Below are positions 43,514-59,407 of a DNA stretch of 64,000 nt, piece after piece (the first letter of the stretch is position 1; every line of letters begins with the position of its first letter). The stretch covers positions 84,644 through 148,643 of the forward strand of contig JBBADJ010000004.1 in assembly GCA_041656495.1 (NCBI GenBank). The letters are read 5' to 3'. Source of the DNA: Candidatus Ratteibacteria bacterium. Lineage in GTDB: Bacteria > Ratteibacteria > UBA8468 > B48-G9 > DTJG01. Position numbers and translations under genes: made by a program. The notes beneath the pieces are model-generated. The model was not told where the DNA came from, ran no database searches, and was given only the letters and a program-made list of their open reading frames with translations.

Positions 43514-44143
43514 TTATCTCCAGATAATATCGCTTCCAAACATTTTACCGTCAATATTATAGTGGGTATATTTTTTCCAATCTGAATGTCCATCTATAAA
43601 AAGAATATTGTTCCCTCCGTTATGTGGTCCCTGTGCAACATTAACATATTCTGGATATGCAACATTGAAAAAATCAGTACAGCGCCAAGGATAGTTTCTG
43701 TTAGCAGGATCAATATCTGTCAAAAGCAACCATCTATGTGAATTGTTTACACGATCTATCTTTTTCCGAGATAACCAACGATTCATTGTATAGCCTACCT
43801 GATTTGAATATGAATGTTTTAATACAGACGGACATCGGAAAACAGTGTTTCTTTTTCCAGAAGAATCATGAGAGCCTACATATTTTCCAATATAGTTTCC
43901 CCAGTGATCAGCACCTTCTGTAGCAAGTGGTAAATACCCATTGTTTTCTTGAGTATACATAAAAAAAGCTAAATATAGTTGTTTTAAATTATTCACACAT
44001 ACAACGGTTCTTGCTCTTTCTCTTGCTCGTGAGAGCGCGGGCAGAAGCATTGCCGCTAAAATAGCAATGATCGAAATCACTACAAGGAATTCTATCAAGG
44101 TGAATCCATGTGATTTGCGAGAAATCACTTTTCCATTAAACAT
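43514..44143 (-). CDS. prepilin-type N-terminal cleavage/methylation domain protein with H-X9-DG motif
   Basis: [26 protein letters not shown]-terminus. C-terminal [13 protein letters not shown]. Confidence 0.85.
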
Positions 44144-45530: not shown

Positions 45531-46280
45531 TTACGGATAGACTGCAGGAGGATCTCTAGGAACTGTTTTATCAGGCCGTGGATCAATCCGTACTGTTCTG
45601 TCAATTACATAGCCGGTCTGGTAGGTGCCTGTCATCATATCATTCATTTCGCAGGGCCTCCACTCTACATGGCCGTCGCAGAAGAGAATATTGGTTCCTC
45701 CATTATGGTTTGCCGCGCTTACATCACTGCGAAGACGGGAAGGTTCCCGTATATAAAATGTCCAAGAGTAGCCGCTGAGAGAGACACAGGCAACAAGAAG
45801 CGTATTTCCCGGTTCTTTCAGATTGCCTGCTTTTATCCATGGATAGGTGTACCAATTAGTTGATACCTGGGGAAGCTGTACATTATATCCATAACTACCG
45901 AAAGATTGAGTAACAGATTGGTGAATTTTATCAGATCCGCACCAGAAGGGAAGATTGCTCCGTTTTGCTACAGGAACTTGATAAGCATAGGTGTAAGCTC
46001 CAAGATATTTTCCATTCCTTTTCACGCCCATTGCTTCGGCGATAAGGTCAAACCAGTAGAAAGCTTGATAATATCTTGAAGGAGGATAAAAATCATCATA
46101 ATCATTATTATAGACCGCGAATCCTATTGCCATCTGTTTCAGATTGCTCATACAGACTGCCTGACGCGCCTTTTCTCTTGCTCGTGAGAGCGCGGGCAGA
46201 AGCATTGCCGCTAAAATAGCAATAATCGCAATAACAACCAAGAGTTCTATTAAGGTAAAACCACTGCATTTTTTTTTCAT
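45531..46280 (-). CDS. prepilin-type N-terminal cleavage/methylation domain protein with H-X9-DG motif (paralogue)
   Basis: [26 protein letters not shown]-terminus. [13 protein letters not shown] near the C-terminus. Shares a 51-bp identical DNA stretch with 43514-44143. Confidence 0.85.
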
Positions 46281-47155
46281 TCATCCCTCCATAGATAGAA
46301 AGAAATTCTTTCTATACATTTATTTTAACTATTGTTTTGGCATCCCTCCTTGTCGCTCAAAAAATGGAAACAAATTATCTTCATCTTTATTTCCTAATAG
46401 AATCGCCTCGCACAATGCAATAGCTCAACTCCTTTCCTGCAGTTACAATCCCTGTTCTACAAGATCTTTTACATTTGCCGGACTTCGGCTCCAAAAGCAC
46501 AATCAAAAGCAATTCAGGAACAATGCTACTTTTCAGCAGAATGGTTATTATGCGAAAGAAAGGAACTCTTTCTATTCCGAAGATTTAGAAGATAATCTCT
46601 TTTTGCGACAACTCTTTTCATTTCTATAACCATTGAATCACCCGTAAAACAGGTCATATTATGGGAAAAAATGTTTTTCAAAGAGAATCTCTCTGACGAC
46701 ATACCATACTTCAAAGTAGTGGCAGTGATACCATGAGAAAAGAGAAGTTTTGTTTGTGGAAAAGTGTAAAAGGGTAGAAGAATAGAAGTGCGAAAAATCT
46801 GGAAACTATGAAAAAAGATAAAGGAAGTAGAGAAAGAGCGAAGCTGAATAACGGAAAAAGAGAATAATGCCTTAATAAAAGAAATACTTTGACTCTCTAT
46901 CTGTCTATGCATTGGCCTCATCCTTTCTGCTTTTATCAGAGGCTACTCGCAATGGCTTCCTTGATAAATTCACTGTACCATGCCAAGAGATTTTGTCAAA
47001 CACCACTGCCCTCATTAGAAATCTATAGGAAAATGTTCGCCTGTAAAAAGAAGCGAATATAAATAAGAGGAAATATCCATACGGATTCCTATTTTTTTAT
47101 CCGATCTGCAGGATGTCTTGTTTCTTATGAAATTCTTAAGAAAAACAGAGAAAAC

Positions 47156-47184
47156 TTGACAATACAATTTTTTGTTAGTATAAA
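47156..47184 (+). promoter_or_regulatory. sigma70-like promoter TTGACA-N17-TATAAA upstream of hicB
   Basis: Read directly from the sequence: TTGACA at 47156-47161 and TATAAA at 47179-47184. Confidence 0.35.
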
Positions 47185-47196
47185 ATAAGAAAAAAG

Positions 47197-47514
47197 GTGC
47201 GATGGGGAGATATGAAAAATAAATATACTTATTATTTTGCTATAATAATAGAGAAGGGAGAAGATGGATATATGTCTTATGCTCCTGGCGTGGGTGGCGT
47301 GTATGAAGAAGGGGCAACAAAAAAAGAAGCTATAGAAAACGCATACAAAGCAGCATGCGCTATTTTAGAAACTCGGATACAACGTAACGACCCACTTACT
47401 GAAAATAATAAATACCTTAGAGTTATAACTTCCGTACCAAACTATAAAGAAATTAATGAGTTTAGTAATATCATTCCTGATGGTTATATTTATACATCTT
47501 TTTGTACCCCCTAA
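47197..47514 (+). CDS. hicB: HicB-family antitoxin (UPF0150)
   Basis: Small protein with HicB-like pattern (YAPGVGGVYEEGATKKEAIENAYKA). Overlaps the downstream hicA-like gene. The start is either GTG 47197 or ATG 47212. Confidence 0.6.
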   Translation: MRWGDMKNKYTYYFAIIIEKGEDGYMSYAPGVGGVYEEGATKKEAIENAYKAACAILETRIQRNDPLTENNKYLRVITSVPNYKEINEFSNIIPDGYIYTSFCTP

Positions 47515-47804
47515 CTATGTTTCCTTTCATAAAAAAAGAATGGAGTAAATCTGAGTGGGGGCAATTAAAAAATCTTACCCCGAAAGATTTAATTACTCTT
47601 CTCAAGAAAGATACTCGTTGGGAATTGGTAAAAACAAAAGGTTCACGTTATATATTTTATAATGTAAAATTGGAAACACCTTACCAATATTTAGAAATTC
47701 ACCACCATAAAAAAGGGTATAGAAACAAAGGTTTACTGAAAAGTATTTTAGATCAATGGTGTTGCACGAAAAATGATTTTAAAAAATGGAATGTAATTAA
47801 ATAG
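47502..47804 (+). CDS. hicA: HicA-like (YcfA family) mRNA-interferase toxin
   Basis: YcfA/HicA pattern LLKKDTRWELVKTKGSRYIF...HHHK...LLKSIL. The canonical GSHH is replaced by GSRY. Confidence 0.5.
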   Translation: MYPLTMFPFIKKEWSKSEWGQLKNLTPKDLITLLKKDTRWELVKTKGSRYIFYNVKLETPYQYLEIHHHKKGYRNKGLLKSILDQWCCTKNDFKKWNVIK

Positions 47805-48002
47805 ATGTTTTACTTATAAAGATTTTGAACCTATTATGCTTGACAAGAGTTTCACAAACCTCATCAGATGAAAATACCTTGATTTTCCTTTCTCCTCTTA
47901 GTTGTTCTTTGGACAACCACTGCTGTAATAACTGCAATTATAGTCCTTTGGATTTTTATAAAATCTTTCTATTGGGATTCTCTACTTAATTAAACCAGTT
48001 TT

Positions 48003-48306
48003 GGGTGGGTGAGGAGATGTTGGCGCCCCTCACTTTCGGAACGTTCGGGGTCGGACACACGTTGGCAATCCTGCCTCTTCGTCGGGTTTCCTGACTTCGC
48101 TCCTTTCAAATCCCCTGAAGGAAATCTTTTTTGGGTCAATGGGAAGAAATAGTTCAAACCTCTAAGATAACCTGTCCGGAGTTTTTGAAGAAGATAAATA
48201 CATTTTGTACATCTATCACTTAAAAGAATAAAATCAGCTCGTGTAACCTCCTCCTCTTTGTAAACTATCCAATCTTCATACACTTACTTCCAATTTCTGT
48301 ATGAGA
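48003..48306 (+). repeat. att-like repeat copy A: tRNA-His 3'-end core (GGGTGGGTGAGGAGA) plus ~290 bp extension
   Basis: Direct repeat of copy B (49935-50183) with a ~65-bp insertion. Contains the hairpin GTGAGGAG / CCCCTCAC. Confidence 0.7.
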
Positions 48307-48522
48307 CTATCTCCTATGCTTAGAGAAAAAGTAGTAGTCTTATAGGTAAAAAAAACTAAAACCACCGAGCTATAAATGTTTCGCTATCTCTTCTTCTCAT
48401 TTTGCCCCCTTTAATACTTTTAAATTATTATACATCTAAAAGCCCTGTCCAGTTTTGAAGACAACTTCATTTTTTCGTCTAAATTTATTATGAGGTAATT
48501 CGTTTTCTTGACAAAAAGAATA

Positions 48523-49140
48523 ATGTCAGTTAAAATATTTAGCAATATGGCTAAATTACTGAATTGGATAAATGCTGAAAAAAAAATAAGAGATTGCGGA
48601 ATTACAATATTCTCTCCTGTTGATCTGAAACGAATATTTGGAGTTTCAGAAGTATCTGTCCGTTTTTTTCTAACGAGATATGTCAAAAAAGGAGCAATTG
48701 TTAAGTTGCGTAACAGCCTTTATACGTTAAATAACAATATCCCTTCAGAGGTTGAGATTGCGAACGCTCTTTATCGTCCGTCATATATTTCTCTTACTTA
48801 TGCACTTGCATATTACCATATTATTCCGGAAATGGTTTACTCTATTACATCAGTAACTACTCTTCCGACAGCAAGATTTAACGCTATAAACAAGGAATTT
48901 CGTTACCATAAAATAAAGGCATCTGTTTTTACTGGATATTCGCCTGTGAAAATTGAAGGCAAAACAATACTTTTTGCATGTAAAGAAAAAGCTTTTGTGG
49001 ATTATCTTTATTTTGTTCTAAGAAAATCCTATAAATTAAATGAAAGAATTGATATTTCTGGACTTGATAAAAAAGAATTAACTAAATATGTTAAATTGTT
49101 TAACAATAAAGGAATAAATGAATTAATTGAGAGGATATAA
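48523..49140 (+). CDS. AbiEi-family antitoxin/transcriptional regulator (type IV TA)
   Basis: About 200 aa with AbiEi-like architecture. Its stop overlaps the start of the AbiEii gene (ATAATG). The track ORF starts at a TTG at 48508. Confidence 0.5.
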   Translation: MSVKIFSNMAKLLNWINAEKKIRDCGITIFSPVDLKRIFGVSEVSVRFFLTRYVKKGAIVKLRNSLYTLNNNIPSEVEIANALYRPSYISLTYALAYYHIIPEMVYSITSVTTLPTARFNAINKEFRYHKIKASVFTGYSPVKIEGKTILFACKEKAFVDYLYFVLRKSYKLNERIDISGLDKKELTKYVKLFNNKGINELIERI

Positions 49141-49865
49141 TGTTAGGTAGAGAGATTATAAAGCAGATGGCTATTCAAAAAAAAACAACTGAGATAAATA
49201 TTGCTCGAGAATATATTCAACATCTATTTTTGTCTTTTTTTTATCAAGAAAGAAAGTCAGAACAGGTGCTTTTTAAGGGCGGAACTGCTTTGCGGATTGC
49301 TTACCTTAGCCCTCGTTTTTCTGAAGACCTTGATTTTTCAGGGTTTAATATAAAAATAGAAGAGTTAGAAACAATATTGATAAATATAATGAGCAAACTA
49401 GATAAAATGGGCGTTATTGTGGATTTATCAGAGAGTAAAAAAACTTCAGGAGGATATATTGGAGCTATCAATGCAGAATTTTCTGGGTATAAGACTCGGA
49501 TACTTCTTGAGGTTTCATTTCGTAAAAGAAAGACAAAAATTGCTGGAGAGCCAATGCTAATAGCGAGTGATTTTCTGCCTCCTTATACAATTTCTATACT
49601 TCCATCTAAAGACTTAATTGATGAAAAACTCTCAGCTGTGTTAACACGGGCAAAGGCGAGGGATTATTACGACCTTTATTTTCTTCTTCGTAAAGGTCTT
49701 ATTACAGTTGAACAGAGAAAGTGTCTTAATAGTATCAAAGAAAAAATAAAAAATGACAAAGTATATATAGAAAAAGAGCTAAAAGATTTTCTCCCTGCTG
49801 ACCAACAAAAACTTATTAGAAATTTTAATGAAATCTTGCTAAGAGAAGTTTCTCAATACGTGTAG
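49140..49865 (+). CDS. AbiEii/AbiGii-family nucleotidyltransferase toxin (DUF1814)
   Basis: Motifs GGTALRIAYLSPRFSEDLDF and RDYYDLYFLL. 241 aa. Confidence 0.7.
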   Translation: MLGREIIKQMAIQKKTTEINIAREYIQHLFLSFFYQERKSEQVLFKGGTALRIAYLSPRFSEDLDFSGFNIKIEELETILINIMSKLDKMGVIVDLSESKKTSGGYIGAINAEFSGYKTRILLEVSFRKRKTKIAGEPMLIASDFLPPYTISILPSKDLIDEKLSAVLTRAKARDYYDLYFLLRKGLITVEQRKCLNSIKEKIKNDKVYIEKELKDFLPADQQKLIRNFNEILLREVSQYV

Positions 49866-49934
49866 TATATGATATCAGTAAACTATATTTTATTTTGCCT
49901 TCCGCTCAAAGACTTGTCTTGTAAAAAAACAAAA

Positions 49935-50183
49935 GGGTGGGTGAGGGGATGTTGGCGCCCCTCACTTTCGAAGCGTTCGGGGTCGGACATCCGCTAGCAA
50001 TCCAGTGGATCAATGGGAGGAGGTAGTTCAAACCTCTAAGATAACCTGTTCGGAGTTTTTGAAGAAGATAAATACATTTTGTGCATCTATCACTTAAAAC
50101 TATAAAATCAGCTCGTGTAGCCTCCTCCTCTTTGTAAACTATCTAATCTCCAACCATTTATTTCCAATTTCTAAAGTATGAGT
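49935..50183 (+). repeat. att-like repeat copy B (tRNA-His 3'-end core plus extension)
   Basis: About 90% identical to copy A. Has the perfect 8-bp hairpin GTGAGGGG-N9-CCCCTCAC. Confidence 0.7.
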
Positions 50184-50208
50184 TTCTCTATTGCCCAATA
50201 TCTATCTT

Positions 50209-51663
50209 TTATTTTTCTGAAAGCCCCAGAACTTTTGCTATACCTTTACCATATGCAGGATCGGCTTTCATACAATTGGATATATGTCTCTCTTTTATCT
50301 CTGTTGGTATATCTCCCATATGTCGAGCGGTATTTTCAAATAAAGTTTGCTGTTGTTCTGGAGACATTAATCTAAAAAGTTTACCTGGTTGAGTGTAATA
50401 ATCATCATCGTCTTCTCTATAATTCCATCTATCAGCTTCTCCATAAATCTTTAGAGGTGGTTCTTTAAACTCAGGCTGCTCTTTCCATTTACCATAACTA
50501 TTTGGTTCATAGTGGAGTTTACTTCCAGCATTTCCATCTACTCGCATCAGCCCGTCTCTATGATAACTGTTGGTAGGAAATTTGGGTGCATTTACAGGAA
50601 TCAAATGATGGTTGACACCCAATCTGTATCTCTGTGCGTCACCATAAGAAAATAATCTTCCTTGAAGCATTCTATCAGGAGAAAAACCTATCCCGGGCAC
50701 AACATTTGCTGGATTAAAAGCTGATTGTTCAACTTCTGCAAAATAGTTTTCTGGATTTCTGTTAAGTTCAAAATAACCAACCTCTATAAGAGGAAAATCT
50801 TTCTTATACCATATTTTTGTAAGGTCAAACGGGTTGTAAGGCATATTTTGTGCCTCTTCTTCTGTCATAACCTGTATATACATTTTCCATTTAGGAAATT
50901 TGCAGTTACGTATATTTTCAAAAAGGTCTCTCTGGTTGCTCTCTCTATCTTTTGCAATTACTGCTTCAGCTTCGGCATCAGTCAGGTTTTTAATACCCTG
51001 TTGGCAGACAAGGTGAAACTTTACCCATACCCTACAATTATTTTCGTTTATCATACTGAATGTATGACTTCCAAATCCATGCATATGCCTGTAAGAATAA
51101 GGAATACCTCTATCGCTCATCGTTATGGTAATCTGGTGGAGAGCTTCAGGAAGCAGAGTCCAAAAATCCCAATTGTTCTTAGCGCTCCTCATATTAGTGT
51201 GCGGGTCTCGCTTTACAGCGTGGTTTAGGTCTATAAATTTTAAAGGGTCCCGGAAGAAGAATACAGGCGTATTATTCCCTACAAGATCCCAATTGCCTTC
51301 TTCGGTATAAAACTTCATTGCAAAACCTCTTATATCCCTTTCAGCGTCCGCTGCTCCTCGTTCTCCTGCTACGGTTGAAAAACGCACAAACATTTCTGTC
51401 TTTTTCCCAATTTGAGAGAAGATTTTCGCTTTTGTATATTTTGTTATATCATGAGTAACAGTGAAAGTGCCGTAAGCTCCAGAACCTTTAGCGTGCATAC
51501 GCCTTTCAGGAATTACTTCTCTATCAAAGTGCGCCATCTTTTCAAGAAACCAGACATCTTGCAGAAGCATCGGTCCACGTGGACCTGCTGTCATAGAGTC
51601 CTGGTTATTTGAAACAGGAGCACCTGCTGCAGTAGTCATTTTATTCATATCTTTTTTTTCCAT
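50209..51663 (-). CDS. katA: monofunctional heme catalase
   Basis: Full-length catalase similarity (RERIPERVVHAKG-like region, [18 protein letters not shown], distal His/Asn, proximal Tyr region). GGAGGA ribosome-binding site. Confidence 0.9.
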
Positions 51664-51777
51664 AAATTTCCTCCAATTTATTCTTTGAATTGAAATTCTC
51701 TATTTTATTTGTTATAGGATTCAATCTTATATCATATAAGAAATATTATATAATTCCAATTTTTACACGTAACCTTT

Positions 51778-52158
51778 TTATTTTTTATACTTATAAGTTT
51801 TTATTATAACAATATGAACTGTAACCGCAATTACAATAAAAATTAGAATAGATTTTAGCCATAAAGGTTTTATGATAAAAAAAACAGTAAACATTATGGT
51901 TGCCCATAACAGAATAATTGTATACAATTTCTGTTTTAATGGTATTCCTTTACCTTGTAAATAGTTTCTTATGTATTGCCCACAAAACTTATTACCTATC
52001 AACCAGTTATAAAAGTTTTCAGAACTGCGAGAGTAACAAAAAGCTGCAAGTAAAAGAAAGGGGGTGGTGGGAAGAATTGGAACAAAAATACCTATGATGC
52101 CTAAGATAACAGAGAGGGTTCCTGCTATTATTAGTAGTTTTTGCTTGACTTGTTTCAT
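51778..52158 (-). CDS. DUF454 (YbaN-like) inner-membrane protein
   Basis: Hallmark ILPTTPFLLLAAFCYSRSS. 126 aa with four transmembrane helices. Directly upstream of the catalase on the same strand. Confidence 0.65.
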   Translation of the reverse strand: MKQVKQKLLIIAGTLSVILGIIGIFVPILPTTPFLLLAAFCYSRSSENFYNWLIGNKFCGQYIRNYLQGKGIPLKQKLYTIILLWATIMFTVFFIIKPLWLKSILIFIVIAVTVHIVIIKTYKYKK

Positions 52159-52431
52159 CCAATAAAATTAACATTTCAAAGAAAGAAAAACAAATTTTAA
52201 AATGAGAAATTTCTTATAAAGGCAAGTATTATATCCCCCTACACCAATGAACTACTTAGAATCTTTATTCCGTAAAAATAATTCTGTTTTGCGGCGCTTC
52301 TCAGAAGAAAAAAGCCGTTATTGCCTTCACGTTCCAACTCAAAAATTGAACAACTTTTAAGATACGCAGGAAGAAGATGGTAACCTGGCTTTCAATTTAA
52401 CAAGTGATAGCATTAACACTAAAAACTGCCA

Positions 52432-52446
52432 GGGTGGGTGAGGGGA
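52432..52446 (+). repeat. att-like core copy C (GGGTGGGTGAGGGGA)
   Basis: Exact copy of the last 15 nt of the tRNA-His gene (as read on the + strand). Sits between the DUF454/catalase cassette and the next TA-like pair. Confidence 0.6.
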
Positions 52447-52755
52447 TTGTGCGGCTGAAATACGCTACGAACGGTCTCCGCTTATAAGAGAAGTGTCTTT
52501 AGTCGGATAGAACCATTGTTCGCCCCCCTACCCCTTCAAGAAGATTACAAAACTGGGTCATTGGAGGGATAAAACTCAGAAGATACTTCTTACTGAATCT
52601 AACTTTAAAAAAAACCTAAACAGATTACCTTTTCTAACACCTTAAACTGGTTTACAACCCATAACCTGCCTGCCCTTTCTACGCATCTATTTTTGTCTAA
52701 AAAAACGTTGATAAAGTGTTACCTATATACCCATATACCCAACTGATACATATAC

Positions 52756-52784
52756 TTGGCTTATACAACAATGTTTGGTATAAT
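52756..52784 (+). promoter_or_regulatory. promoter TTGGCT-N17-TGgTATAAT (extended -10)
   Basis: Read directly from the sequence. Followed by an AGGAGG Shine-Dalgarno at 52796-52801. Confidence 0.35.
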
Positions 52785-52788
52785 ACTT

Positions 52789-53196
52789 ATGAAACAGGAG
52801 GTTATCTTGAGCATAGTAATCAAAACAATAGGGAAACAACAATATGCATATCAGGCTTATCGTAATGGGAACAGGATAGTGCAGAAATATCTGGGAAATA
52901 TTGCCGACAATAAGGTGAAAAAAATGCTGGAAGAATTAAAAAGAACGAATCAAGTGCAACAACGATTCTATCCCTTATTCTGGGACGTAGAACCTAACAA
53001 GATTAACATTCGCAAAAATGCCAGATATATTATTGAGCGTGTCCTGGAAGTGGGAGACACAGCCGCATTTCAATGGATACAAAATATGTATCCAACGCGT
53101 TTGATTCTGGATACATGCAACACAAGCCGAAAAATATCCGAAAAATCAAGAATATTCTGGAAAATCTGGCTGGGGGAAATGTCCAATGCACAATGA
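52789..53196 (+). CDS. small protein, putative antitoxin/regulator partner of the downstream nucleotidyltransferase
   Basis: Overlaps the downstream AbiEii-like gene by 11 nt. No HTH recognised. The start is uncertain: ATG 52789, or TTG 52807 after the SD. Confidence 0.35.
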   Translation: MKQEVILSIVIKTIGKQQYAYQAYRNGNRIVQKYLGNIADNKVKKMLEELKRTNQVQQRFYPLFWDVEPNKINIRKNARYIIERVLEVGDTAAFQWIQNMYPTRLILDTCNTSRKISEKSRIFWKIWLGEMSNAQ

Positions 53197-53839
53197 ATGT
53201 TTTCCAAAAAAAGGTATAGACGTTTTAAAACGATTGAAACCTATTATCAAGACACGCCGTTTCATTTTAGCCGGTGAAACCGCCGCCGCAATACAGATTG
53301 GACATAGGATATCTGAAGATCTTGATTTCTTTGCCGCTCAGTCGTTTTCAACCGATGAAATTCTCAATGAAATTAAACAACAGAAACTTAATTTTTCACT
53401 TCTACAGGAAGAACAGAATACATTGACAAGCATTATAGAAAATACCAAGGTATCTCTATTTTGCTACCCCTACCCTTTCATTGAGAAATACGTCAGTTGG
53501 CAAGGCATTTCAGTTGCCAGTCTTACGGATATCGCCTCCATGAAGGTTATTGCCATAAGCCAACGAGGGGCGAAAAGAGATTTTGTTGATATGTATTTTA
53601 TTCTACGTTCAATACCATTTTGGAGAATTGCCGATAATATGATTCAACGCTTTGGAACTGCCAGAATCAACCCCGTGCATATTGGTAAATCGTTGGTATA
53701 CTTTCATGATGCTGAAGTTGACCCAGACCCTCATTACTGTTTGGGATACGAAACAAATTGGCAAGCTATCAAAGTATTTTTCATAAACCATGTTCAGCAA
53801 TTGGTAATAGATTTGCAGAGAGCAAAAGAAACAGGATAA
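53186..53839 (+). CDS. AbiEii-like nucleotidyltransferase (short form)
   Basis: Shares GxTAxxxxxxxRxSEDLDFF and (K/A)RDF(V/Y)DMYF(I/L)L motifs with the 49140-49865 product. Confidence 0.55.
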   Translation: MHNECFPKKGIDVLKRLKPIIKTRRFILAGETAAAIQIGHRISEDLDFFAAQSFSTDEILNEIKQQKLNFSLLQEEQNTLTSIIENTKVSLFCYPYPFIEKYVSWQGISVASLTDIASMKVIAISQRGAKRDFVDMYFILRSIPFWRIADNMIQRFGTARINPVHIGKSLVYFHDAEVDPDPHYCLGYETNWQAIKVFFINHVQQLVIDLQRAKETG

Positions 53840-53909
53840 CTGTTTATATCAAAACGTAATGTTCCAACTAAATCCTCCAGAAATAAGTGCACCGCAACGA
53901 TTTCAGGCT

Positions 53910-54296
53910 GGGTGGGTGAGGGGATGTTGGCGCCCTCGCTTCCCACTACAGCTCGGGTCGGCCACTCGCTGGCAATCCTGCCTCTTCGTCGGATTGCCTG
54001 ACTTCGCTCAATTCAAATCCCCTGAAGGAAAACTTTTTGGGTGGGTGAGGGGATGTTGGCGCCTTCGCCTTTCGATACGGCTCAGGTCGGCCACTCGCTG
54101 GCAATCCTGCCTCTTCGTCGGATTGCCTGACTTCGCTCAATTCAAATCCCCTGAAGGAAAACTTTTTGGGTGGGTGAGGGGATGTTGGCGCCCCTCACTT
54201 TCGGAACGTTCGGGGTCGGCCATCCGCGAAGATTGCTGCGCTCACTCGCAATCTTTCCACTTCGCTCCTTTCAAATCCCCTGAAGGAAAACTTTTT
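53910..54296 (+). repeat. three tandem 129-bp repeat units, each beginning with the tRNA-His 3'-terminal 15-16 nt
   Basis: Unit starts at 53910, 54039 and 54168. Each ends with TTCAAATCCCCTGAAGGAAAACTTTTTG. The first third of each unit is variable. Confidence 0.8.
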
Positions 54297-54370
54297 GGGT
54301 GGGTGAGGGGATTTGAACCCCCGACATCCAGAGCCACAGTCTGGCGCTCTGCCCCTGAGCTACACCCACC
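54297..54370 (-). tRNA. tRNA-His (anticodon GUG) with encoded G-1
   Basis: Manual fold of the reverse complement: acceptor GUGGGUG/CACCCAC with G-1:C73, D-stem GCUC/GAGC, anticodon stem CCAGA/UCUGG, loop CUGUGGC (GUG), T-arm GGGGG-UUCAAAU-CCCCU. Confidence 0.85.
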
Positions 54371-54477
54371 ATATAACTGTAAACTACTATATCTTACCTT
54401 GTTTCAGTGATTTGTAAAGATACTACTGTGTTCTAAGAAAAAACTCTTCTCTGCAAGAAAAAAATGAAGTTATGATA

Positions 54478-55434
54478 TTATTTTTGCGGAACGCAGAACA
54501 ATGCGAAGTTTTCTTCTGAAACATTTCCGCCGCTTACGATACATACCACCTTCTTTCCCGCGCAAGGAATTTTTCCCAACATCACCGCGGCAAGAGATGC
54601 CGCACCTGCAAATTCCGCCACAATTTTCATCTCCTTAAATAAGGTCTTTGCGGCAAAAGCAATCTCCTCGTCGCTTACTAAAACAATATCATCCACCAAT
54701 CTATTCACGATAGAAAAGGTAAGGTCCCCTGGACGTTTTACAGCGATACCTTCTGCGATAGTGGAAATATCTGAAAGTGTTTGAACAACTCCCGACTCTC
54801 TTGAACGATACATAGATGGAGATCCCTCTGCCTGTACTCCGATTACTGTAATATCAGGTCTTTGCTCCTTTAATGCGAGAAGAACGCCAGAAATAAGCCC
54901 TCCTCCTCCCACAGGAGAAAGCACGATATCAGCATCCGGAAGGTCTTCTGCTATCTCAAGCCCTATTGTTCCCTGGCCTTCAATAATACGGGGATCGTCA
55001 AAAGAATGGATAAAGGTTCTTTTCTCCTCCAGCGACCGTTTCAATGCATAGGTATGACTTTCAAAATAGGTAGCGCCCTCCACATGAACAGGTGCAAATC
55101 TGGCAAGCGCTTCTTGTTTATTGGATGGAGTATGTTCTGGAATCACAACCAGCGCATCTATCCCTTCTTTATATGATACATAAGCAACTCCGAGCCCATG
55201 ATTCCCCGAAGTAGCACAGATTACGCCCTGTTTTCTCTCTTCAGATGAAAGAGACGCAATCTTCCATGTTACACCGCGTACCTTGAAAGCACCTGTCCTT
55301 TGAAGATTTTCAAGTTTGAAAAAAACTTCTGCTCCAAATTGTTCGCCAAGGTATTCAGAAGAGAAAAGCGGAGTACGGATAATTTTCCCCTTCAAATATT
55401 CTTGAGCTTTTTTTATTTCAGAAAATTGAACCAC
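54478..55434 (-). CDS. PLP-dependent serine/threonine dehydratase family protein
   Basis: PALP-fold motifs FKVRG and SGNHG. GTG start immediately after the upstream gene's TGA. Confidence 0.7.
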   Translation of the reverse strand: MVQFSEIKKAQEYLKGKIIRTPLFSSEYLGEQFGAEVFFKLENLQRTGAFKVRGVTWKIASLSSEERKQGVICATSGNHGLGVAYVSYKEGIDALVVIPEHTPSNKQEALARFAPVHVEGATYFESHTYALKRSLEEKRTFIHSFDDPRIIEGQGTIGLEIAEDLPDADIVLSPVGGGGLISGVLLALKEQRPDITVIGVQAEGSPSMYRSRESGVVQTLSDISTIAEGIAVKRPGDLTFSIVNRLVDDIVLVSDEEIAFAAKTLFKEMKIVAEFAGAASLAAVMLGKIPCAGKKVVCIVSGGNVSEENFALFCVPQK

Positions 55435-57015
55435 TCATCCCTCCCTTGAAAGAATTTTTCCTGGGGTTACTCCAGTATGAGTTCCTTCTTCAACCACAAC
55501 AGTTCCTCCCACAAGCACCCATTCAATACCCGCAGGAGGCAAATGAGTATCTTGAAAAGTTGCACGATCCCGTACTGTGTCAGGATTAAAAATAACAATA
55601 TCAGCGATATAATCTTTGGAAATTGCCCCCCGTTTCTTCAATCCAAGCCGTTGTGCGGGTCCTGTGCTTAATTTCCAGATTGCTTCTGTCCAAGAAAGGA
55701 CAGCCTCTTCGCGAACATACATACCAAGTATCCGAGGGAAACTTCCACATAATCTTGGATGCACTCCCGGCACTGGAAGACCATCGCTTCCTCCGAAAAC
55801 AAAAGGAAGTTTCATAATAGTACGAAGAGATTCCTCACTTACAAGATCCATTGCCATCGTTGCCCTACCCTTCTCTGCAAGAAGAAAATCACAAAGAAAT
55901 GTAAATGGACTTTTTTTCATACTATCAGCTGACTGGGCAATACTGGCGCCCACAAAAGGAAGATTTTCAGGAAAAGAGGCATTCCTGAGAAAAATGCGAT
56001 CCCATCCACACAATGCAACAGAATCTTCCCATATAGGGTTTCTCCTTCCAACCTCTGCCTCGGCTCTTTTTCGAGAAGAAGGGTCTTCAAGTCTTCCAAG
56101 GAATGCACTCATCCCTCCTTCATGCATCCATCCGGGAAAGAGCGAAGTAAGAGTGGTTGCCGCAAAAGTATAGGGATATTGATCGCAAAAGAGCTCTATT
56201 CCTTTTTGACGCGCGGATTCAAGAAGATCTATCGCGCTTTCAAGGGTTTTTCCAGCATTGTGACCTGCTGACTTGAAATGGGAAATCTGAAGAGAAACTC
56301 CGCTATCAACCGCAACTGACACTGCTTCTGCAAGGGCTTCTGTTAAGGCATTCCCTTCGTTTCTTATATGGGTCGCATAGATTCCATTCCAACGCGCGAC
56401 CACACGGCAAAGAGAGTTTAATTCTTCAAAAGAAGCAAAAATTCCTGGAGGATAGGTCAATCCAGAAGAGAGCCCGCCACAACCTCTCTTCATAATTTTT
56501 TCAAGTAAAGATTCCATAGAACTGAGTTCTTCCTGAGAAAGTGGCCCAGAGTTACAGCCACGGACCATGGTTCTAAGGTTTCCATGTCCGACAAGAGGAA
56601 GAATATTGGTGCAAAGTGGCGCCGAGGAAATAATCTCAAGAAATTCGTTCCAGGAACATTCCTTTCTCATCTGAGAAAGTTCTCCGAGAACCGCCCTATT
56701 CTGCATAAGAAAAAAACTATTCTTCTCATTGAAAGGAGCGGCGGAAATACCGCAGTTTCCTGTTACAACAGTAGTAATTCCCTGAAGAATTTTTGGTAAG
56801 TACGGTTCATCTTCCATCAGCATAAGATCATCATGGCTATGGATATCAATAAAACCCGGAGAAACATACATACCCGAAGCATCAATTTCTCTTCTCGCCC
56901 GAACAGAAGAAAGCTCTCCAATTGCAACGATACGGCCATGAGATATGCCGATATCTGCCTGAAATAGGGAGGAATCCGAAAGAACCGTTCCATTTCTTAT
57001 AAGAAGATCAACCAT
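55435..57015 (-). CDS. N-acyl-D-amino-acid deacylase (D-aminoacylase), amidohydrolase superfamily
   Basis: Motifs GFIDIHSHDD, QGITTVVTGNCG. 526 aa. Confidence 0.75.
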   Translation of the reverse strand: MVDLLIRNGTVLSDSSLFQADIGISHGRIVAIGELSSVRARREIDASGMYVSPGFIDIHSHDDLMLMEDEPYLPKILQGITTVVTGNCGISAAPFNEKNSFFLMQNRAVLGELSQMRKECSWNEFLEIISSAPLCTNILPLVGHGNLRTMVRGCNSGPLSQEELSSMESLLEKIMKRGCGGLSSGLTYPPGIFASFEELNSLCRVVARWNGIYATHIRNEGNALTEALAEAVSVAVDSGVSLQISHFKSAGHNAGKTLESAIDLLESARQKGIELFCDQYPYTFAATTLTSLFPGWMHEGGMSAFLGRLEDPSSRKRAEAEVGRRNPIWEDSVALCGWDRIFLRNASFPENLPFVGASIAQSADSMKKSPFTFLCDFLLAEKGRATMAMDLVSEESLRTIMKLPFVFGGSDGLPVPGVHPRLCGSFPRILGMYVREEAVLSWTEAIWKLSTGPAQRLGLKKRGAISKDYIADIVIFNPDTVRDRATFQDTHLPPAGIEWVLVGGTVVVEEGTHTGVTPGKILSREG

Positions 57016-57026
57016 AAGAGTATCTG

Positions 57027-57100
57027 TGCGCCTGGCGCGACTCGAACGCGCGGCCGCTGGATTCGAAGTCCAGCGCTCTATCCATCTGAGCTACAGGCGC
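57027..57100 (-). tRNA. tRNA-Arg (anticodon UCG)
   Basis: Manual fold: acceptor GCGCCUG/CAGGCGC, D-stem GCUC/GAGC, anticodon stem CUGGA/UCCAG with loop CUUCGAA, T-stem GCGCG/CGCGC. No encoded CCA. Confidence 0.85.
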
Positions 57101-57508
57101 AACTCTCCCAAAACTCTGTTCTGCGCTTATCAAGGCGCAAGAATCAACTAAGAAAGTAATCAAATATGACTTTTTCCCACTACTCTTCCGCACTATCACG
57201 CACATTATCAACCTTCAGAAAAATAGTACGGAGGTTACAAGTGAAGAGTTACCACACTCTATTTCACTCCACATAAAGGGAAAAGAATATTATACCATAT
57301 TGCTATAGGGCTTCTTATTAGAAAAAACCGCTCCTATCATAATCTATGCTATGAAATCATCTGCAAAAAGAAGGTAAGTGACTGTTGCTATGGAAATAAG
57401 AGAGAAAAAAAGTTCAAAGTTTCTTTATTCACGCGGTATGGTATGATATGATTCACTATGATGGAAAAGTCCATACCATACCTTGACCACAAATAACCTT
57501 CGGATACC

Positions 57509-59407
57509 ATGCTTCAGATTACTCATCTTACAAAACGGTTCGGCGCCACAACTCTTTTCAACAAAACCTCCTTTTTTTTGAATGTAGGAGACAGGGTTGC
57601 TCTTCTTGGACCGAATGGATCTGGAAAAACAACCTTCTTTCGTATAATCCTTGGAAAAGAGAGGCCAGATTCAGGAGAAATCTCCTTGCGTAAGGGTGTA
57701 CGAATTGGGTTTCTTGCGCAGGAAGATGTTACCACAATCCATCGCACGGTGATCTCTGAAACCTTGGCATTTTCTCCGGAAATTGTTTTACTTCAAAAAA
57801 AAATAATGAAAACTGCGGAAACAATGGCAACATCCTCCGGAAAAAAGAATGAAGAGCTTCTTAAAGAGTATGGAGCGCTCCACACTGCCTTTGAAAATCT
57901 TGGCGGATATTCCATTGAACATCGCGCAAAAATTGCGCTTGCTGGTCTTGGCTTTAAGGAGAAGGATTTTTTTCGGCCCATTGAAGAATTCAGTGGCGGC
58001 TGGAAAATGCGGATTGCTCTTGCCAAACTTCTTGTACATCCTCCAGACTTGCTTATTCTTGATGAACCCACAAACCATCTTGATCTTCATGCGGTTCTCT
58101 GGCTTGAATCATATCTTGTGGGAGCAAAAAAAACTCTTCTATTTACCTCCCATGATCGCGAATTTATAGACCATGTAGCTACACGAATTATTGATATTGA
58201 TCAAAAAAAACTTGTGGGATATAAGCCGCCGTGGGAACTGTTTCAGCAAGAAAAGAATAAAATGCGGCAAACAATAGAAGCTGCCAAAAAAAATCAGGAG
58301 AAAAAAATTGCAGAAGCGCAAAGATTTATTGAACGGTTCCGGGCAACCGCCACAAAAGCGCGGTCAGTACAGAGCCGTATCAAAATGGTAAAGAAGATGG
58401 AAACCATTGAGCTTCCTCAAAAGCTCCATACAATGACATTGAAACTTCCTCAACCTATACGAAGCGGACTACAGGTAATCACTCTTTCGGATTTATATAA
58501 AAGTTATGGCGAAACCTCTGTATATCAAGGAATAGATTTTTCTGTAACCAGAGGAGAAAAAATCGCATTTTTAGGAGCCAACGGCGCTGGAAAATCTACT
58601 TTGTTGAAAATTCTTGCAGGCGTTGTTCCTGTAGATTCCGGAAGAAGAATCGTGGGACATAATGTACATATTGGATATTATCCTCAAAATCGTATTGAGC
58701 TTCTTCATCCGAAAAAAAGTTCTTTTGAAGAGATCGCCGAAGTATATCCCGATGGTAAAGAATCAAAGATACGAGGACTTCTTGGAAGGTTTCTCTTTTC
58801 AGGAGACGATGCGGATAAACCAGTACATGTTCTCAGCGGCGGTGAAAAAAGCCGATTGGTTATGGCAAAAATCCTTGCAAACCCGCCAAACTGTATTCTT
58901 CTTGACGAACCAGTGAACCATCTTGATATTCCCTCTCGAGACATTCTTATCAACGCACTGAAGGAATTTGAAGGAACCCTCTGTTTCATTAGCCATGATC
59001 TTCATTTTATTAAAAAGGTAGCAACCAAAATTGTAGAAATTAATAACGGCATTCTTACACAGTACCCTGGAAATTATGATTACTATATTCAGAAGAAAAA
59101 GAATCAAGAAGTATTGAAAGAAGAGAAGAAAAAAGAGCAAAAACCTTCAACTATTCTAAAAAAGAAAAAAAACCTTAAAAAAGAATCTACTTCCTCCCAA
59201 ATCACTCTCATAGAAGAAGAATTTCGTTCTTTATTAGAAAAAATCGATTCTATCAACCAATCTCTCGCAGATCCTAAAACCTATCAGAAACCTGGCTTTG
59301 AAGACCTTGCGCGCGAAGAAAAACATCTTCGTCGAAAAAGCGATCTTCTTTTTGAAAAATGGGAGTGCCTTATAGAAGAATCTGAAAAAAAAGAAAAAGA
59401 AGAATAA
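57509..59407 (+). CDS. ABC-F family ATPase (tandem ABC domains; translation-factor-type)
   Basis: Two Walker A sites (GPNGSGKTT, GANGAGKST), two signature motifs (LSGGWKMR, LSGGEKSR), a linker and a C-terminal charged extension. No transmembrane domain. Confidence 0.85.
   Translation: MLQITHLTKRFGATTLFNKTSFFLNVGDRVALLGPNGSGKTTFFRIILGKERPDSGEISLRKGVRIGFLAQEDVTTIHRTVISETLAFSPEIVLLQKKIMKTAETMATSSGKKNEELLKEYGALHTAFENLGGYSIEHRAKIALAGLGFKEKDFFRPIEEFSGGWKMRIALAKLLVHPPDLLILDEPTNHLDLHAVLWLESYLVGAKKTLLFTSHDREFIDHVATRIIDIDQKKLVGYKPPWELFQQEKNKMRQTIEAAKKNQEKKIAEAQRFIERFRATATKARSVQSRIKMVKKMETIELPQKLHTMTLKLPQPIRSGLQVITLSDLYKSYGETSVYQGIDFSVTRGEKIAFLGANGAGKSTLLKILAGVVPVDSGRRIVGHNVHIGYYPQNRIELLHPKKSSFEEIAEVYPDGKESKIRGLLGRFLFSGDDADKPVHVLSGGEKSRLVMAKILANPPNCILLDEPVNHLDIPSRDILINALKEFEGTLCFISHDLHFIKKVATKIVEINNGILTQYPGNYDYYIQKKKNQEVLKEEKKKEQKPSTILKKKKNLKKESTSSQITLIEEEFRSLLEKIDSINQSLADPKTYQKPGFEDLAREEKHLRRKSDLLFEKWECLIEESEKKEKEE

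Follow-up and report, generated by a model that had tools for sequence, protein, structure and literature searches.

Within the 64,000-nt stretch of DNA that we analysed (hereafter, the window), a tRNA-His(GUG) gene on the minus strand (54297..54369; detected by ARAGORN and scoring 66.8 bits with the Rfam tRNA model) directly adjoins a tandem array that Tandem Repeats Finder places at 53909-54312, with a period of 129, 3.1 copies, and 86% matches. The three 129-bp units abutting the tRNA gene that the initial annotation had described, starting at 53910, 54039, and 54168, are confirmed by Tandem Repeats Finder, ARAGORN, and Rfam. Each unit lies on the minus strand and re-creates at its end the final 16 nt of tRNA-His, ATCCCCTCACCCACCC. 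Unit F (54168..54296; 129 nt), which scores 135 bits with our covariance model R1, comprises 5 pieces in tRNA sense: a trailer (54282-54296), an inverted T-loop/T-stem segment, AGGGGATTTGAA (54270-54281), an 8-bp hairpin P2 (54229-54255), a hairpin P3 with tandem G-A (54191-54215), and a copy of the tRNA 3' end (54168-54183). Units E (54039..54167) and D (53910..54038), the latter being the last of the tandem array, have an F-like layout; both carry a P2 of the D/E type, with a P3 of the E and D types, respectively. The common head and tail that had been claimed for the units hold as well: the 25-mer head is exact at 53910, 54039, 54168, and 49935 and has 1 mismatch at 48003, and the 28-mer tail is exact 3 times and has 2 mismatches at 48105, with no match to either in a shuffled-sequence control. 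Over the whole unit, 32% and 29.5% of bases differ between F and D and between F and E, respectively. Since roughly one base in three thus distinguishes F from the other two units, and independent assemblies hold the same units, the array is not an assembly loop.

A promoter-like site (TTTACA-16-TAAGAT; 54391..54418, minus strand) lies approximately 22 nt upstream of the tRNA-His gene. It is a consensus match only, and the same hexamers are present upstream of the tRNA-His gene of an approximately 90%-identical relative (L040). We infer that a transcript containing the tRNA plus the units would start at this site. A sequence scan found no terminator-like site in the array, and an intrinsic terminator role for the units was therefore rejected. 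Because the array is on the tRNA strand, adjoins the gene, follows a promoter-like site, and contains nothing resembling a terminator, we assume that transcription proceeds through it, and the RtT-like units are probably co-transcribed with the tRNA. On the plus strand, a spurious 183-aa ORF (53859..54410) runs antisense through the 3 units and the tRNA gene, and stays open because 129 equals 3 x 43.

Four further copies of the tRNA-His end are found 2 to 6 kb from the array, among toxin-antitoxin and catalase genes. In all, the tRNA-His 3' end occurs in 7 direct copies, of a single orientation, that flank inserted DNA across 6.3 kb (48003-54312). The seventh, copy C (52432..52472, minus strand), had been overlooked in the initial annotation; its flank is different, in that 17 nt of the tRNA-His 3' end are joined to another 25-nt segment (CGTATTTCAGCCGCACA...), which at the tRNA-Gln locus also stands ahead of a copy of the tRNA-Gln 3' end. 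Copy B (49935..50005, minus strand) is only a partial unit, consisting of the 3' ~71 nt (F-type P3 plus the tRNA end) fused to a 167-nt repeat, D3, that also precedes copy A. Copy A itself (48003..48132, minus strand) is a full unit, of which the length and hairpin had to be corrected: it is 130 nt long, its middle hairpin P2 is of the D/E type and degenerate, its P3 is of the F type, and there is one C>T change within its tRNA-end copy. The proposed mosaicism of copies A and B holds for the middle hairpin region of A, which is D/E-like, but not for its extreme tail, which is F-like rather than D/E-like. The GTGAGGGG-N9-CCCCTCAC hairpin pairs fully in unit F and in copy B but has one mismatch in copy A.

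The first D3 copy (48132..48298; 167 nt, 91% identical to 50006-50172) is directly upstream, in tRNA sense, of unit A; the second (50006..50172) is directly upstream of partial unit B and contains an in-frame stop. D3 may be a gene fragment. Neither Pfam nor PHROG yielded a match that would identify it as an integrase or excisionase remnant, and the gene found after catalase in a related contig does not begin with a similar sequence. The segments bounded by the tRNA-end copies encode, in the stretch from copy C to unit D and oriented convergently to the array, a DUF6922 plus AbiEii-like nucleotidyltransferase pair (type IV toxin-antitoxin; 52756..53839, plus strand; Pfam); between copies B and C, a catalase and a DUF454 membrane protein (50209..52158, minus strand; Pfam), a 75%-identical pair of which occurs elsewhere in an ordinary chromosomal context; and, between copies A and B, an AbiEi-like/AbiEii toxin-antitoxin pair (48508..49865, plus strand; Pfam). 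A HicB-like/HicA-like pair (47197..47804, plus strand), for which both Pfam matches are under the cut-off, lies beyond copy A. The island with these gene segments is absent from the relative L040.

Homologous units follow tRNA-Gln (L045 and L053), tRNA-Ser (L051), and a Leu-like tRNA (L046), and a single unit follows the tRNA-His gene of L040. The units are thus not local duplicates, and the further copies support the suggestions that the array is not ordinary intergenic DNA and that it represents a tRNA-derived repeat family. The proteins of the contigs with the tRNA-Gln, tRNA-Ser, and Leu-like loci are all named Candidatus Ratteibacteria and come from the same two NCBI accession series, and these loci appear to belong to the same Candidatus Ratteibacteria genome as the tRNA-His array. 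The covariance model R1 recovers the tRNA-Ser unit, which was outside its training set, at 106 bits. The L040 unit diverges about as fast as its flanks (87-90% versus 90% identity).

Across loci, the units consist of 4 parts in tRNA sense: a local trailer of 12-30 nt, an inverted segment of 11-12 nt, a body of approximately 83 nt with P2 and P3, and a tRNA-end copy that runs from the end of the T-loop to the tRNA 3' end. The body is common to the loci, and bodies of the same type differ at only 1-6 of 80 nt between loci. By contrast, both ends are tRNA-specific, the left being the exact reverse complement of the T-loop plus the 3' T-stem, and the right a copy of the tRNA 3' end. The inverted match starts at the first T-loop base and extends over 12, 11, 11, and 11 nt at His, Gln, Leu-like, and Ser, respectively, where the left-end sequences are AGGGGATTTGAA, GAGGATTCGAA, AGGGAGTTGAA, and AGGGATTTGAA, each of them the reverse complement of the local tRNA. 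At the tRNA-Gln locus, the copies have CGCGGAGCAGC in place of the CGCCGGGCAGC of the resident tRNA. Unit lengths elsewhere are 125, 126, 128, 130, and 139 nt, and the periods of 125, 126, and 139 are not multiples of 3.

No units away from tRNA 3' ends or the tRNA-His island were found with nhmmer and R1 in the approximately 170 kb searched, which include the 64-kb window, and no Rfam family matches the units. An exact-pattern search with a 19-mer of the head in 185,579 species genomes gave chance matches in coding DNA only. A 19-mer of the tail gave only chance matches in JGI metagenome contigs, a weak negative because the scan did not return a JGI contig known to contain the tail. The head, the tail, and two P2-type body motifs yielded nothing relevant in IMG/VR viral contigs. 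In a synteny walk that traced homologues of the nearby PALP gene, only the 93%-identical homologue keeps an adjacent tRNA-His, and the 53-57% homologues have no nearby tRNA. Three candidate identities were rejected: degenerate tRNA pseudogenes, since the same body is found behind 4 different tRNAs; type III antitoxin-like repeats, since at most loci the units are neither upstream of nor co-stranded with a toxin gene; and a CRISPR-like array, since identical "spacers" occur in identical order at different loci.

The two tRNA-specific ends of a unit can pair with each other: in the predicted structure, the inverted segment and the tRNA-end copy form a helix, P1, at the base of a three-way junction, from which the acceptor 3' strand protrudes unpaired. 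The two body hairpins stay paired through compensatory changes. In P3, both sides are changed in 3 of 7 pairs, with no one-sided changes, and two unrelated P2 sequences occupy the same position, each as a perfect 8-bp hairpin. For P1 and P3 together, 85.7% of cells are paired, compared to at most 55% with slid partners, and the covariation score was reached in none of 500 shuffles, although this signal rests on a handful of events because the available units fall into few independent types. The tandem G-A, as well as the G-U pairs that result from C>T changes in copy A and L040, would be tolerated on the tRNA-sense strand only. The folding proposed as a check on the units bore out, in minimum-energy folds, P2 (9 of 10 units), P3 (most units), and P1 (4 units: HisD, HisE, L040u, and SerU1); the segments that would pair in P1 occur in every unit. 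Single units are not markedly more stable than shuffled sequences (z of -0.1 to -1.8), and in F-type units a rival hairpin, GUGAGGGG-N9-CCCCUCAC, is possible that excludes P1 and P3.

The arrays vary in copy number. Unit E is missing from a 99.7%-identical strain (L017), and the number of full units behind tRNA-Gln is 1, 2, or at least 3, depending on the assembly. All tested combinations of P2 and P3 types exist. Same-type bodies at different loci resemble each other more than do adjacent bodies of one array, while each locus has its own linkers, a pattern that simple unequal crossing-over does not yield.

Our favoured explanation, in which we place about even confidence, is that this array and the homologous ones form a lineage-specific family of tRNA-trailer repeats, with an architecture like that of the RtT repeats of E. 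coli tyrT. The tRNA promoter would also drive the units, as a long 3' trailer of the tRNA, and cuts at each repeated tRNA end and trailer would release structured RNAs of approximately 125-139 nt, by analogy with E. coli RttR, an RNA derived from one repeat unit of the tyrT operon according to PMC3318445 (which cites Bosl and Kersten 1991) and bioRxiv 10.1101/2024.07.17.603846. Arrays would gain and lose units through unequal homologous recombination at the repeated linkers, and gene conversion would exchange bodies among tRNA loci; the match of the ends to the local tRNA would be maintained by conversion from the tRNA gene or because pairing is selected for. The outlying tRNA-His-end copies may have arisen when gene segments (the AbiE and HicAB pairs and catalase) were inserted into or beside the array, via recombination at the repeated units or via an integrase using the repeated tRNA ends. 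As to the role of the unit RNA, our best guess is that it acts in cis in pre-tRNA 3' maturation or is a stable by-product RNA.

The most serious competitor, which we regard as possible but only about half as probable, is that the array consists of stacked attachment (att) sites of small integrative elements, with a recombinase that recognises the tRNA T-arm and 3' end; the hairpins would then be protein-binding or folded-DNA features, and the segments between A, B, C, and D captured cassettes. The initial annotation had already raised stacked att sites, and part of that proposal stands, in that the 7 tRNA-end copies bound gene segments, and these are typical island cargo (two AbiE pairs, HicAB, and catalase), while L040 lacks the island. 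The switch from shared body to tRNA-specific sequence falls in the T-loop at all 4 tRNAs, the unrelated copy-C module joins the His end and the Gln end at an identical point, and the copies at tRNA-Gln do not match the end of the resident tRNA, as would be expected of imported att copies. The F-type units also offer a perfect 8-bp inverted repeat with a 9-bp spacer that overlaps the tRNA end, but D- and E-type units are without perfect arms, and the spacer CGCCAACAT has only 2-3 bases in common with the T-loop TTCAAAT, so that a crossover there would lack the identity that tyrosine recombinases need. A recombinase gene was looked for and not seen: among the window ORFs of at least 150 aa, bar 4 without a Pfam match, there is no integrase, serine recombinase, or transposase domain, and the same is true of the called genes within 10 kb of the other arrays, save for a weak IS110-like fragment that lies 5 kb away from the Leu-like array. 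The head, tail, and P2-type body motifs were not found in the IMG/VR viral contigs. The structure-preserving, compensatory stem changes and the tandem G-A fit a folded single strand and not a protein-binding sequence. Finally, to our knowledge a cargo-less unit of 129 bp is too short for circle excision by known integrases, which also counts against att sites.

We consider it rather unlikely that the units lack a function of their own and perpetuate themselves as a by-product when tRNA genes recombine, through unequal crossing-over, interlocus gene conversion, and template switching at the inverted repeat, being tolerated because the transcribed trailers that hold them are harmless. Variable copy number among near-identical strains, the occurrence of P2 and P3 types in all combinations, the persistence of the degenerate copies A and B far from the tRNA, and the near-flank divergence rate of the L040 unit would all be expected. 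Against this stand the double substitutions that preserve pairing in both hairpins, the perfect match of the inverted segment to 4 different tRNAs, and the fact that E. coli, an independent lineage, shares the design and accumulates RtT-derived RNA according to PMC3318445. Miniature inverted-repeat elements (MITEs) inserting beside tRNA genes are very improbable. The units are small, have imperfect inverted ends, and occur in several genomic copies, but the terminal inverted repeats, which do exist as initially described, are not a property of the element: they copy the tRNA and change with it. MITE-like dispersal did not hold up in the window and the other loci searched (approximately 170 kb), where there was no copy off a tRNA end; there is no short target-site duplication, and no transposase was seen. 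Least credible of all, and in our view almost certainly wrong, is that the array encodes a protein with 43-residue repeats or is an assembly artefact. The 183-aa plus-strand frame is open across 3 units and called as a gene in public assemblies; it is nevertheless antisense to a tRNA gene, its called product has no Pfam match on record, and substitutions among D, E, and F scramble the peptide yet keep the base pairs. The 130-nt length of unit A and the periods of 125 and 139 nt at other tRNAs rule out a coding repeat, and an artefact would not explain 3 mutually different units in an array that recurs across independent assemblies.

A more speculative extension, to which we assign a low probability, somewhat below that of a functionless by-product, is that the units constitute an active, re-targetable system, either as a mobile module with ends rewritten to match the tRNA (T-arm-guided recombination) or as RNAs that mimic tRNA ends. 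If such mimics exist, the T-stem helix with a free acceptor strand would make them natural external guide or decoy RNAs, which would contact the cognate tRNA, processing enzymes, or toxins that modify tRNA 3' ends; candidate toxin partners would be the AbiEii nucleotidyltransferases encoded next to two arrays. The loci also provide natural "swap" experiments, with the same body between the ends of other tRNAs, that could reveal the purpose of the T-arm pairing and of the tRNA-end mimic. For practical purposes, metagenome assemblies break at tRNA genes with these arrays, and the arrays create spurious ORFs in public protein databases.

Several known systems resemble the array in part. The attL/attR sites of genomic islands, including those of integrase-less elements accreted in tandem (CIME-type), are likewise direct repeats of a tRNA end in one orientation that flank toxin-antitoxin and stress genes, with a related genome lacking the island. 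Unlike at such islands, no integrase is seen here, the repeat is a 129-nt structured unit instead of a bare 15-50-bp identity block, 3 units are in tandem without cargo, and one body is found at 4 tRNAs. Integron attC sites and CALINs are also structured imperfect palindromes, of approximately 60-140 nt, with conserved ends and a variable middle that conserves pairing, and they alternate with segments of one or two genes, often toxin-antitoxin. However, the ends here copy a tRNA, the arrays start at tRNA genes and not at attI/intI, no integron integrase is seen, and the attC end motifs RYYYAAC/GTTRRRY are absent from the unit alignments; the nearest sequences, CGCCAAC and GTTGAAG, break the motif and are missing in the Gln units. 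The 3'ETS-leuZ of E. coli, a functional tRNA 3' external transcribed spacer that acts as an sRNA sponge, is a stable RNA freed from a tRNA trailer by the tRNA-processing machinery, a fate that the present units may share. It is, however, a single short spacer, without repeats, a tRNA-end copy, or an inverted T-arm segment.

The closest parallel, which the initial annotation had not noted, is RtT. As far as we know, RtT repeats have stood alone as a curiosity of E. coli tyrT since the late 1970s, without consensus on what they do or how they arose, and RtT is confined to tRNA-Tyr genome-wide. Our literature searches found no reports of tRNA-matched repeat families other than RtT. In both systems, a tRNA gene is immediately followed by tandem units in its own orientation (178 bp x 3.1 abutting E. 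coli tyrV, with a fourth RtT between tyrT and tyrV, versus 129 bp x 3.1 here), each of which closes with the final 16-19 nt of the tRNA. Moreover, the 5' part of the unit inversely complements the T-stem/T-loop (10 nt for tyrV/RtT) to give a closing helix, which is predicted here, and in the Rfam consensus of RtT the 5' part of the unit and its tRNA-Tyr-like 3' part form the closing helix, which encloses two inner hairpins and leaves CACCACCA as a free tail. The Rfam RtT model (RF00391; gathering score 45 bits) gave 4 matches of 133-138 bits on the E. coli control, but none at E≤1 over 46000-58000 of the window or at E≤10 over the array alone, and R1 reached only E=0.94 on the E. coli locus. 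Homology to RtT was thus searched for in both directions and not detected; since neither covariance model detects the other family, the likeness is one of architecture only. The systems also differ in that the host here belongs to a distant uncultured phylum, the tRNA ends are without encoded CCA, copies also flank gene segments, and the family occurs behind at least 4 tRNAs with tRNA-specific ends, while RtT, at the tyrT-tyrV locus of E. coli K-12, goes with tRNA-Tyr. What is new relative to RtT, as far as we know, is a single structured body behind 4 tRNAs, with both ends matched to the tRNA. Since an RtT-like design recurs in an unrelated, uncultured phylum, and with a body shared among 4 tRNAs, it looks like a recurrent solution or mechanism and not the accident of one operon.

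A single tandem array is present in the window (Tandem Repeats Finder: 53909-54312, period 129, 3.1 copies, 86% matches). Since tRNA-His(GUG) occupies 54297-54369 on the minus strand (ARAGORN and Rfam), the array starts one base past the tRNA 3' end, and we describe all units in the tRNA sense, i.e., on the minus strand. Counting from tRNA-His, the units are F (54296-54168), E (54167-54039) and D (54038-53910). Each consists of a 15-nt trailer, AAAAAGTTTTCCTTC, a segment AGGGGATTTGAA, a body of approximately 83 nt, and a string AACATCCCCTCACCCACCC, whose final 16 nt are those of the tRNA-His end. Unit F has only 68-70% identity to D and E, which share 94% with each other. The head and tail strings described in the initial annotation are found exactly where it placed them and 0 times in shuffled sequence. 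The tRNA-end 16-mer occurs 7 times in the window over 48003-54312, in one orientation throughout: in tRNA-His, D, E, F and 3 further minus-strand copies, A (48003-48132; a full, decaying unit), B (49935-50005; the final approximately 71 nt of a unit) and C (52432-52448; with a flank that differs from the other copies). Searches with an nhmmer profile built on the body and with a covariance model of the unit (R1) found no further unit copies in the window or in the other loci searched.

Those other loci were found with a spurious 183-aa ORF (53859-54410, plus strand) as protein query; in public gene calls, spurious ORFs without Pfam domain (proteins P0121-P0127) run antisense through arrays and tRNA genes. 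Scanning public genomes, metagenomes and viral contigs for exact patterns gave chance hits only, the metagenome negative being weak because a contig known to hold the pattern went unreturned. This contig, JGI Ga0172382_10000065, demonstrably contains the exact pattern, and absence from that metagenome collection therefore does not mean absence from JGI data. The initial annotation had raised the matter of copies beyond the window, and these are present after 3 further tRNAs. tRNA-Gln(UUG) (L045 and L053) is followed by 1 or 2 full units and then a longer terminal module, a class-II Leu-like tRNA (L046, truncated by the contig end) by 3 units with period 125-126, and tRNA-Ser(UGA) (L051) by a single full unit and then the beginning of the terminal module known from tRNA-Gln. 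R1 scores the tRNA-Ser unit, which is outside its training set, at 106 bits. Because the proteins of these contigs fall exactly within the window's two NCBI accession series and bear an identical organism name, we infer that the His, Gln, Leu-like and Ser loci belong to one genome. No unit follows tRNA-Arg(UCG) (57026-57100), which lies 2.7 kb from tRNA-His, and a gene begins 11 nt downstream; arrays are not present at every tRNA gene of the genome.

The terminal module (L045 6140-6330, minus strand; L053 1210-1440; L051 1-102) is an E-type unit with its 3' part replaced by ACCGAGGCTTGTTTGT..., the same at tRNA-Gln and tRNA-Ser. At tRNA-Gln, approximately 170 nt of other sequence comes next, closing with CGTATTTCAGCCGCACA and a copy of the tRNA 3' end; the tRNA-Ser contig stops ahead of this closing part. 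Copy C (52432-52472) has only the closing segment in common with the module.

The units share their bodies across tRNAs, and their ends are specific to each tRNA. There are 2 types of the first body hairpin (P2) and 3 of the second (P3), with all tested combinations present. Same-type bodies at different tRNAs differ at 1-6 of 80 nt, and neighbouring units within one array at 36-41 of 80 nt. At each locus, the longest inverted tRNA match within 70 nt downstream is 11-12 nt (TTCAAATCCCCT, TTCGAATCCTC, TTCAACTCCCT, TTCAAATCCCT), and in every case it reverse-complements the T-loop and 3' T-stem strand, from the first T-loop base. Every unit closes with the local tRNA's own 3' end, followed by that tRNA's own trailer. 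Since the ends track the tRNA, what was initially annotated as terminal inverted repeats are in fact copies of the neighbouring tRNA and not of a transposon. Of the readings put forward there, a tRNA-derived repeat family stands. A MITE is rejected, and so is a local duplication artefact, units of the latter kind of array being present at other tRNA loci as well. Three unexplained features make this more than a routine repeat: bodies are homogenised between loci but linkers within loci, the match of the inverted segment to the tRNA T-loop is better than that to its own unit end, and the order F-type to E-type is identical at His, Gln and Ser. At tRNA-Gln, distal copies have CGCGGAGCAGC versus CGCCGGGCAGC in the tRNA; the proximal unit of L053 agrees with its tRNA.

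The array recurs with its contig (approximately 165 kb) in ENA, JGI and NCBI assemblies, and the window proteins carry the NCBI name Candidatus Ratteibacteria bacterium. A JGI contig with 99.7% flank identity contains D and F, with E absent, and other assemblies break inside the array. In a relative with approximately 90% DNA identity (L040), tRNA-His is followed by one unit with a slightly decayed tRNA-end copy and then by unrelated DNA, without island.

A coding repeat is ruled out by unit lengths of 125, 126, 128, 130 and 139 nt. P3 is CCC-GA-GCU...AGC-GA-GGG in D, CCU-GA-GCC...GGC-GA-AGG in E and CCCC-GA-AC...GU-GA-GGGG in F. In a nine-unit alignment, which holds few independent unit types, 3 of 7 P3 pairs are altered on both sides and 0 on one side; 85.7% of cells in P3 and P1 (inverted segment with tRNA-end copy) are paired, compared to at most 55% with partners slid, and the covariation score was reached by 0 of 500 shuffles. 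Both P2 types, which are unrelated in sequence, form a perfect 8-bp hairpin. Only the tRNA-sense strand can accommodate the tandem G-A mismatches and the G-U pairs that C>T changes produced in A and L040. P2/P3 pairing and the strand-specific mismatches are evidence for a folded single strand. P1 could form 6-9 bp as read from the sequence, and closes a predicted three-way junction in minimum-energy folds of several units. The stability of single-unit folds is not far above that of shuffled sequence (z -0.1 to -1.8), and F-type units have a competing hairpin.

Between the tRNA-end copies lie an AbiEi/AbiEii pair (48508-49865), catalase and DUF454 (50209-52158) and a DUF6922/AbiEii pair (52756-53839), with a weak HicB/HicA pair beyond copy A. 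In front of both A and B lies a 167-nt repeat (48132-48298 and 50006-50172; 91% identical), which has no match in Pfam or PHROGs. Its minus-strand frame has synonymous and conservative differences, resembling a gene start; the second copy contains a stop codon. No recombinase or transposase domains were found in window ORFs of at least 150 aa (64 kb) or in precomputed annotations of 20 kb around the array. The spread of A-C is best explained by insertion of gene segments into a unit array or next to it, and either recombination at the units or a tRNA-specific integrase acting on the repeated tRNA ends may have been the route. One such segment, DUF454-catalase, occurs elsewhere as an ordinary chromosomal pair: the island pair has 75% DNA identity to its counterpart in another digester bacterium (L048 7431-9453, in an ordinary chromosomal neighbourhood), with homology stopping at the gene borders. 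A weak IS110-family (DEDD) transposase fragment (L046 3321-3845), 5 kb from the Leu-like array, has no established link to the units. AbiEi/AbiEii-type toxin-antitoxin pairs adjoin arrays at 2 tRNA loci (window 48508-49865 and 52756-53839; L046 7122-8433). AbiEii relatives (MenT) modify tRNA 3' ends, which are also what the units mimic; the adjacency may be coincidence, because such pairs are frequent island cargo. Prepilin-type (N_methyl/DUF1559-like) paralogues (43514-44143 and 45531-46280) share a 5' stretch of approximately 92 bp (89% identity), which is ordinary for such a genome.

The tRNA-His array is real and non-coding, and by analogy we read it as a tRNA-trailer repeat like RtT (Rfam RF00391) of E. 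coli. It is probably transcribed together with tRNA-His, judging from a promoter-like site 22 nt upstream of the tRNA that is also conserved in L040; no terminator-like sites were found in the array. The transcript would be cut at every repeated tRNA end/trailer, homologous recombination would change the arrays, and gene conversion would transfer bodies between loci; we infer both route of spread and function. The E. coli tyrT-tyrV locus, run through the same tools, gave 178 bp x 3.1 copies adjoining tyrV and 4 Rfam RtT elements, with rttR and tpr annotated. RttR is reported as an RNA from one tyrT-operon repeat unit, whose contribution to transcript processing or to the stringent response is unclear (PMC3318445; bioRxiv 10.1101/2024.07.17.603846). 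Homology cannot be detected: Rfam RtT does not match the units even at E<=10, and R1 reaches only E=0.94 at tyrT-tyrV. The two share one design, down to the inverted T-stem copy. The RtT consensus has a closing helix (GGGGAAGGAU/AUCCUUCCCC) made with the tRNA-Tyr-like 3' end, 2 inner hairpins and a CACCACCA tail that is left free. What is new relative to RtT, as known so far, is the presence of units at multiple tRNAs.
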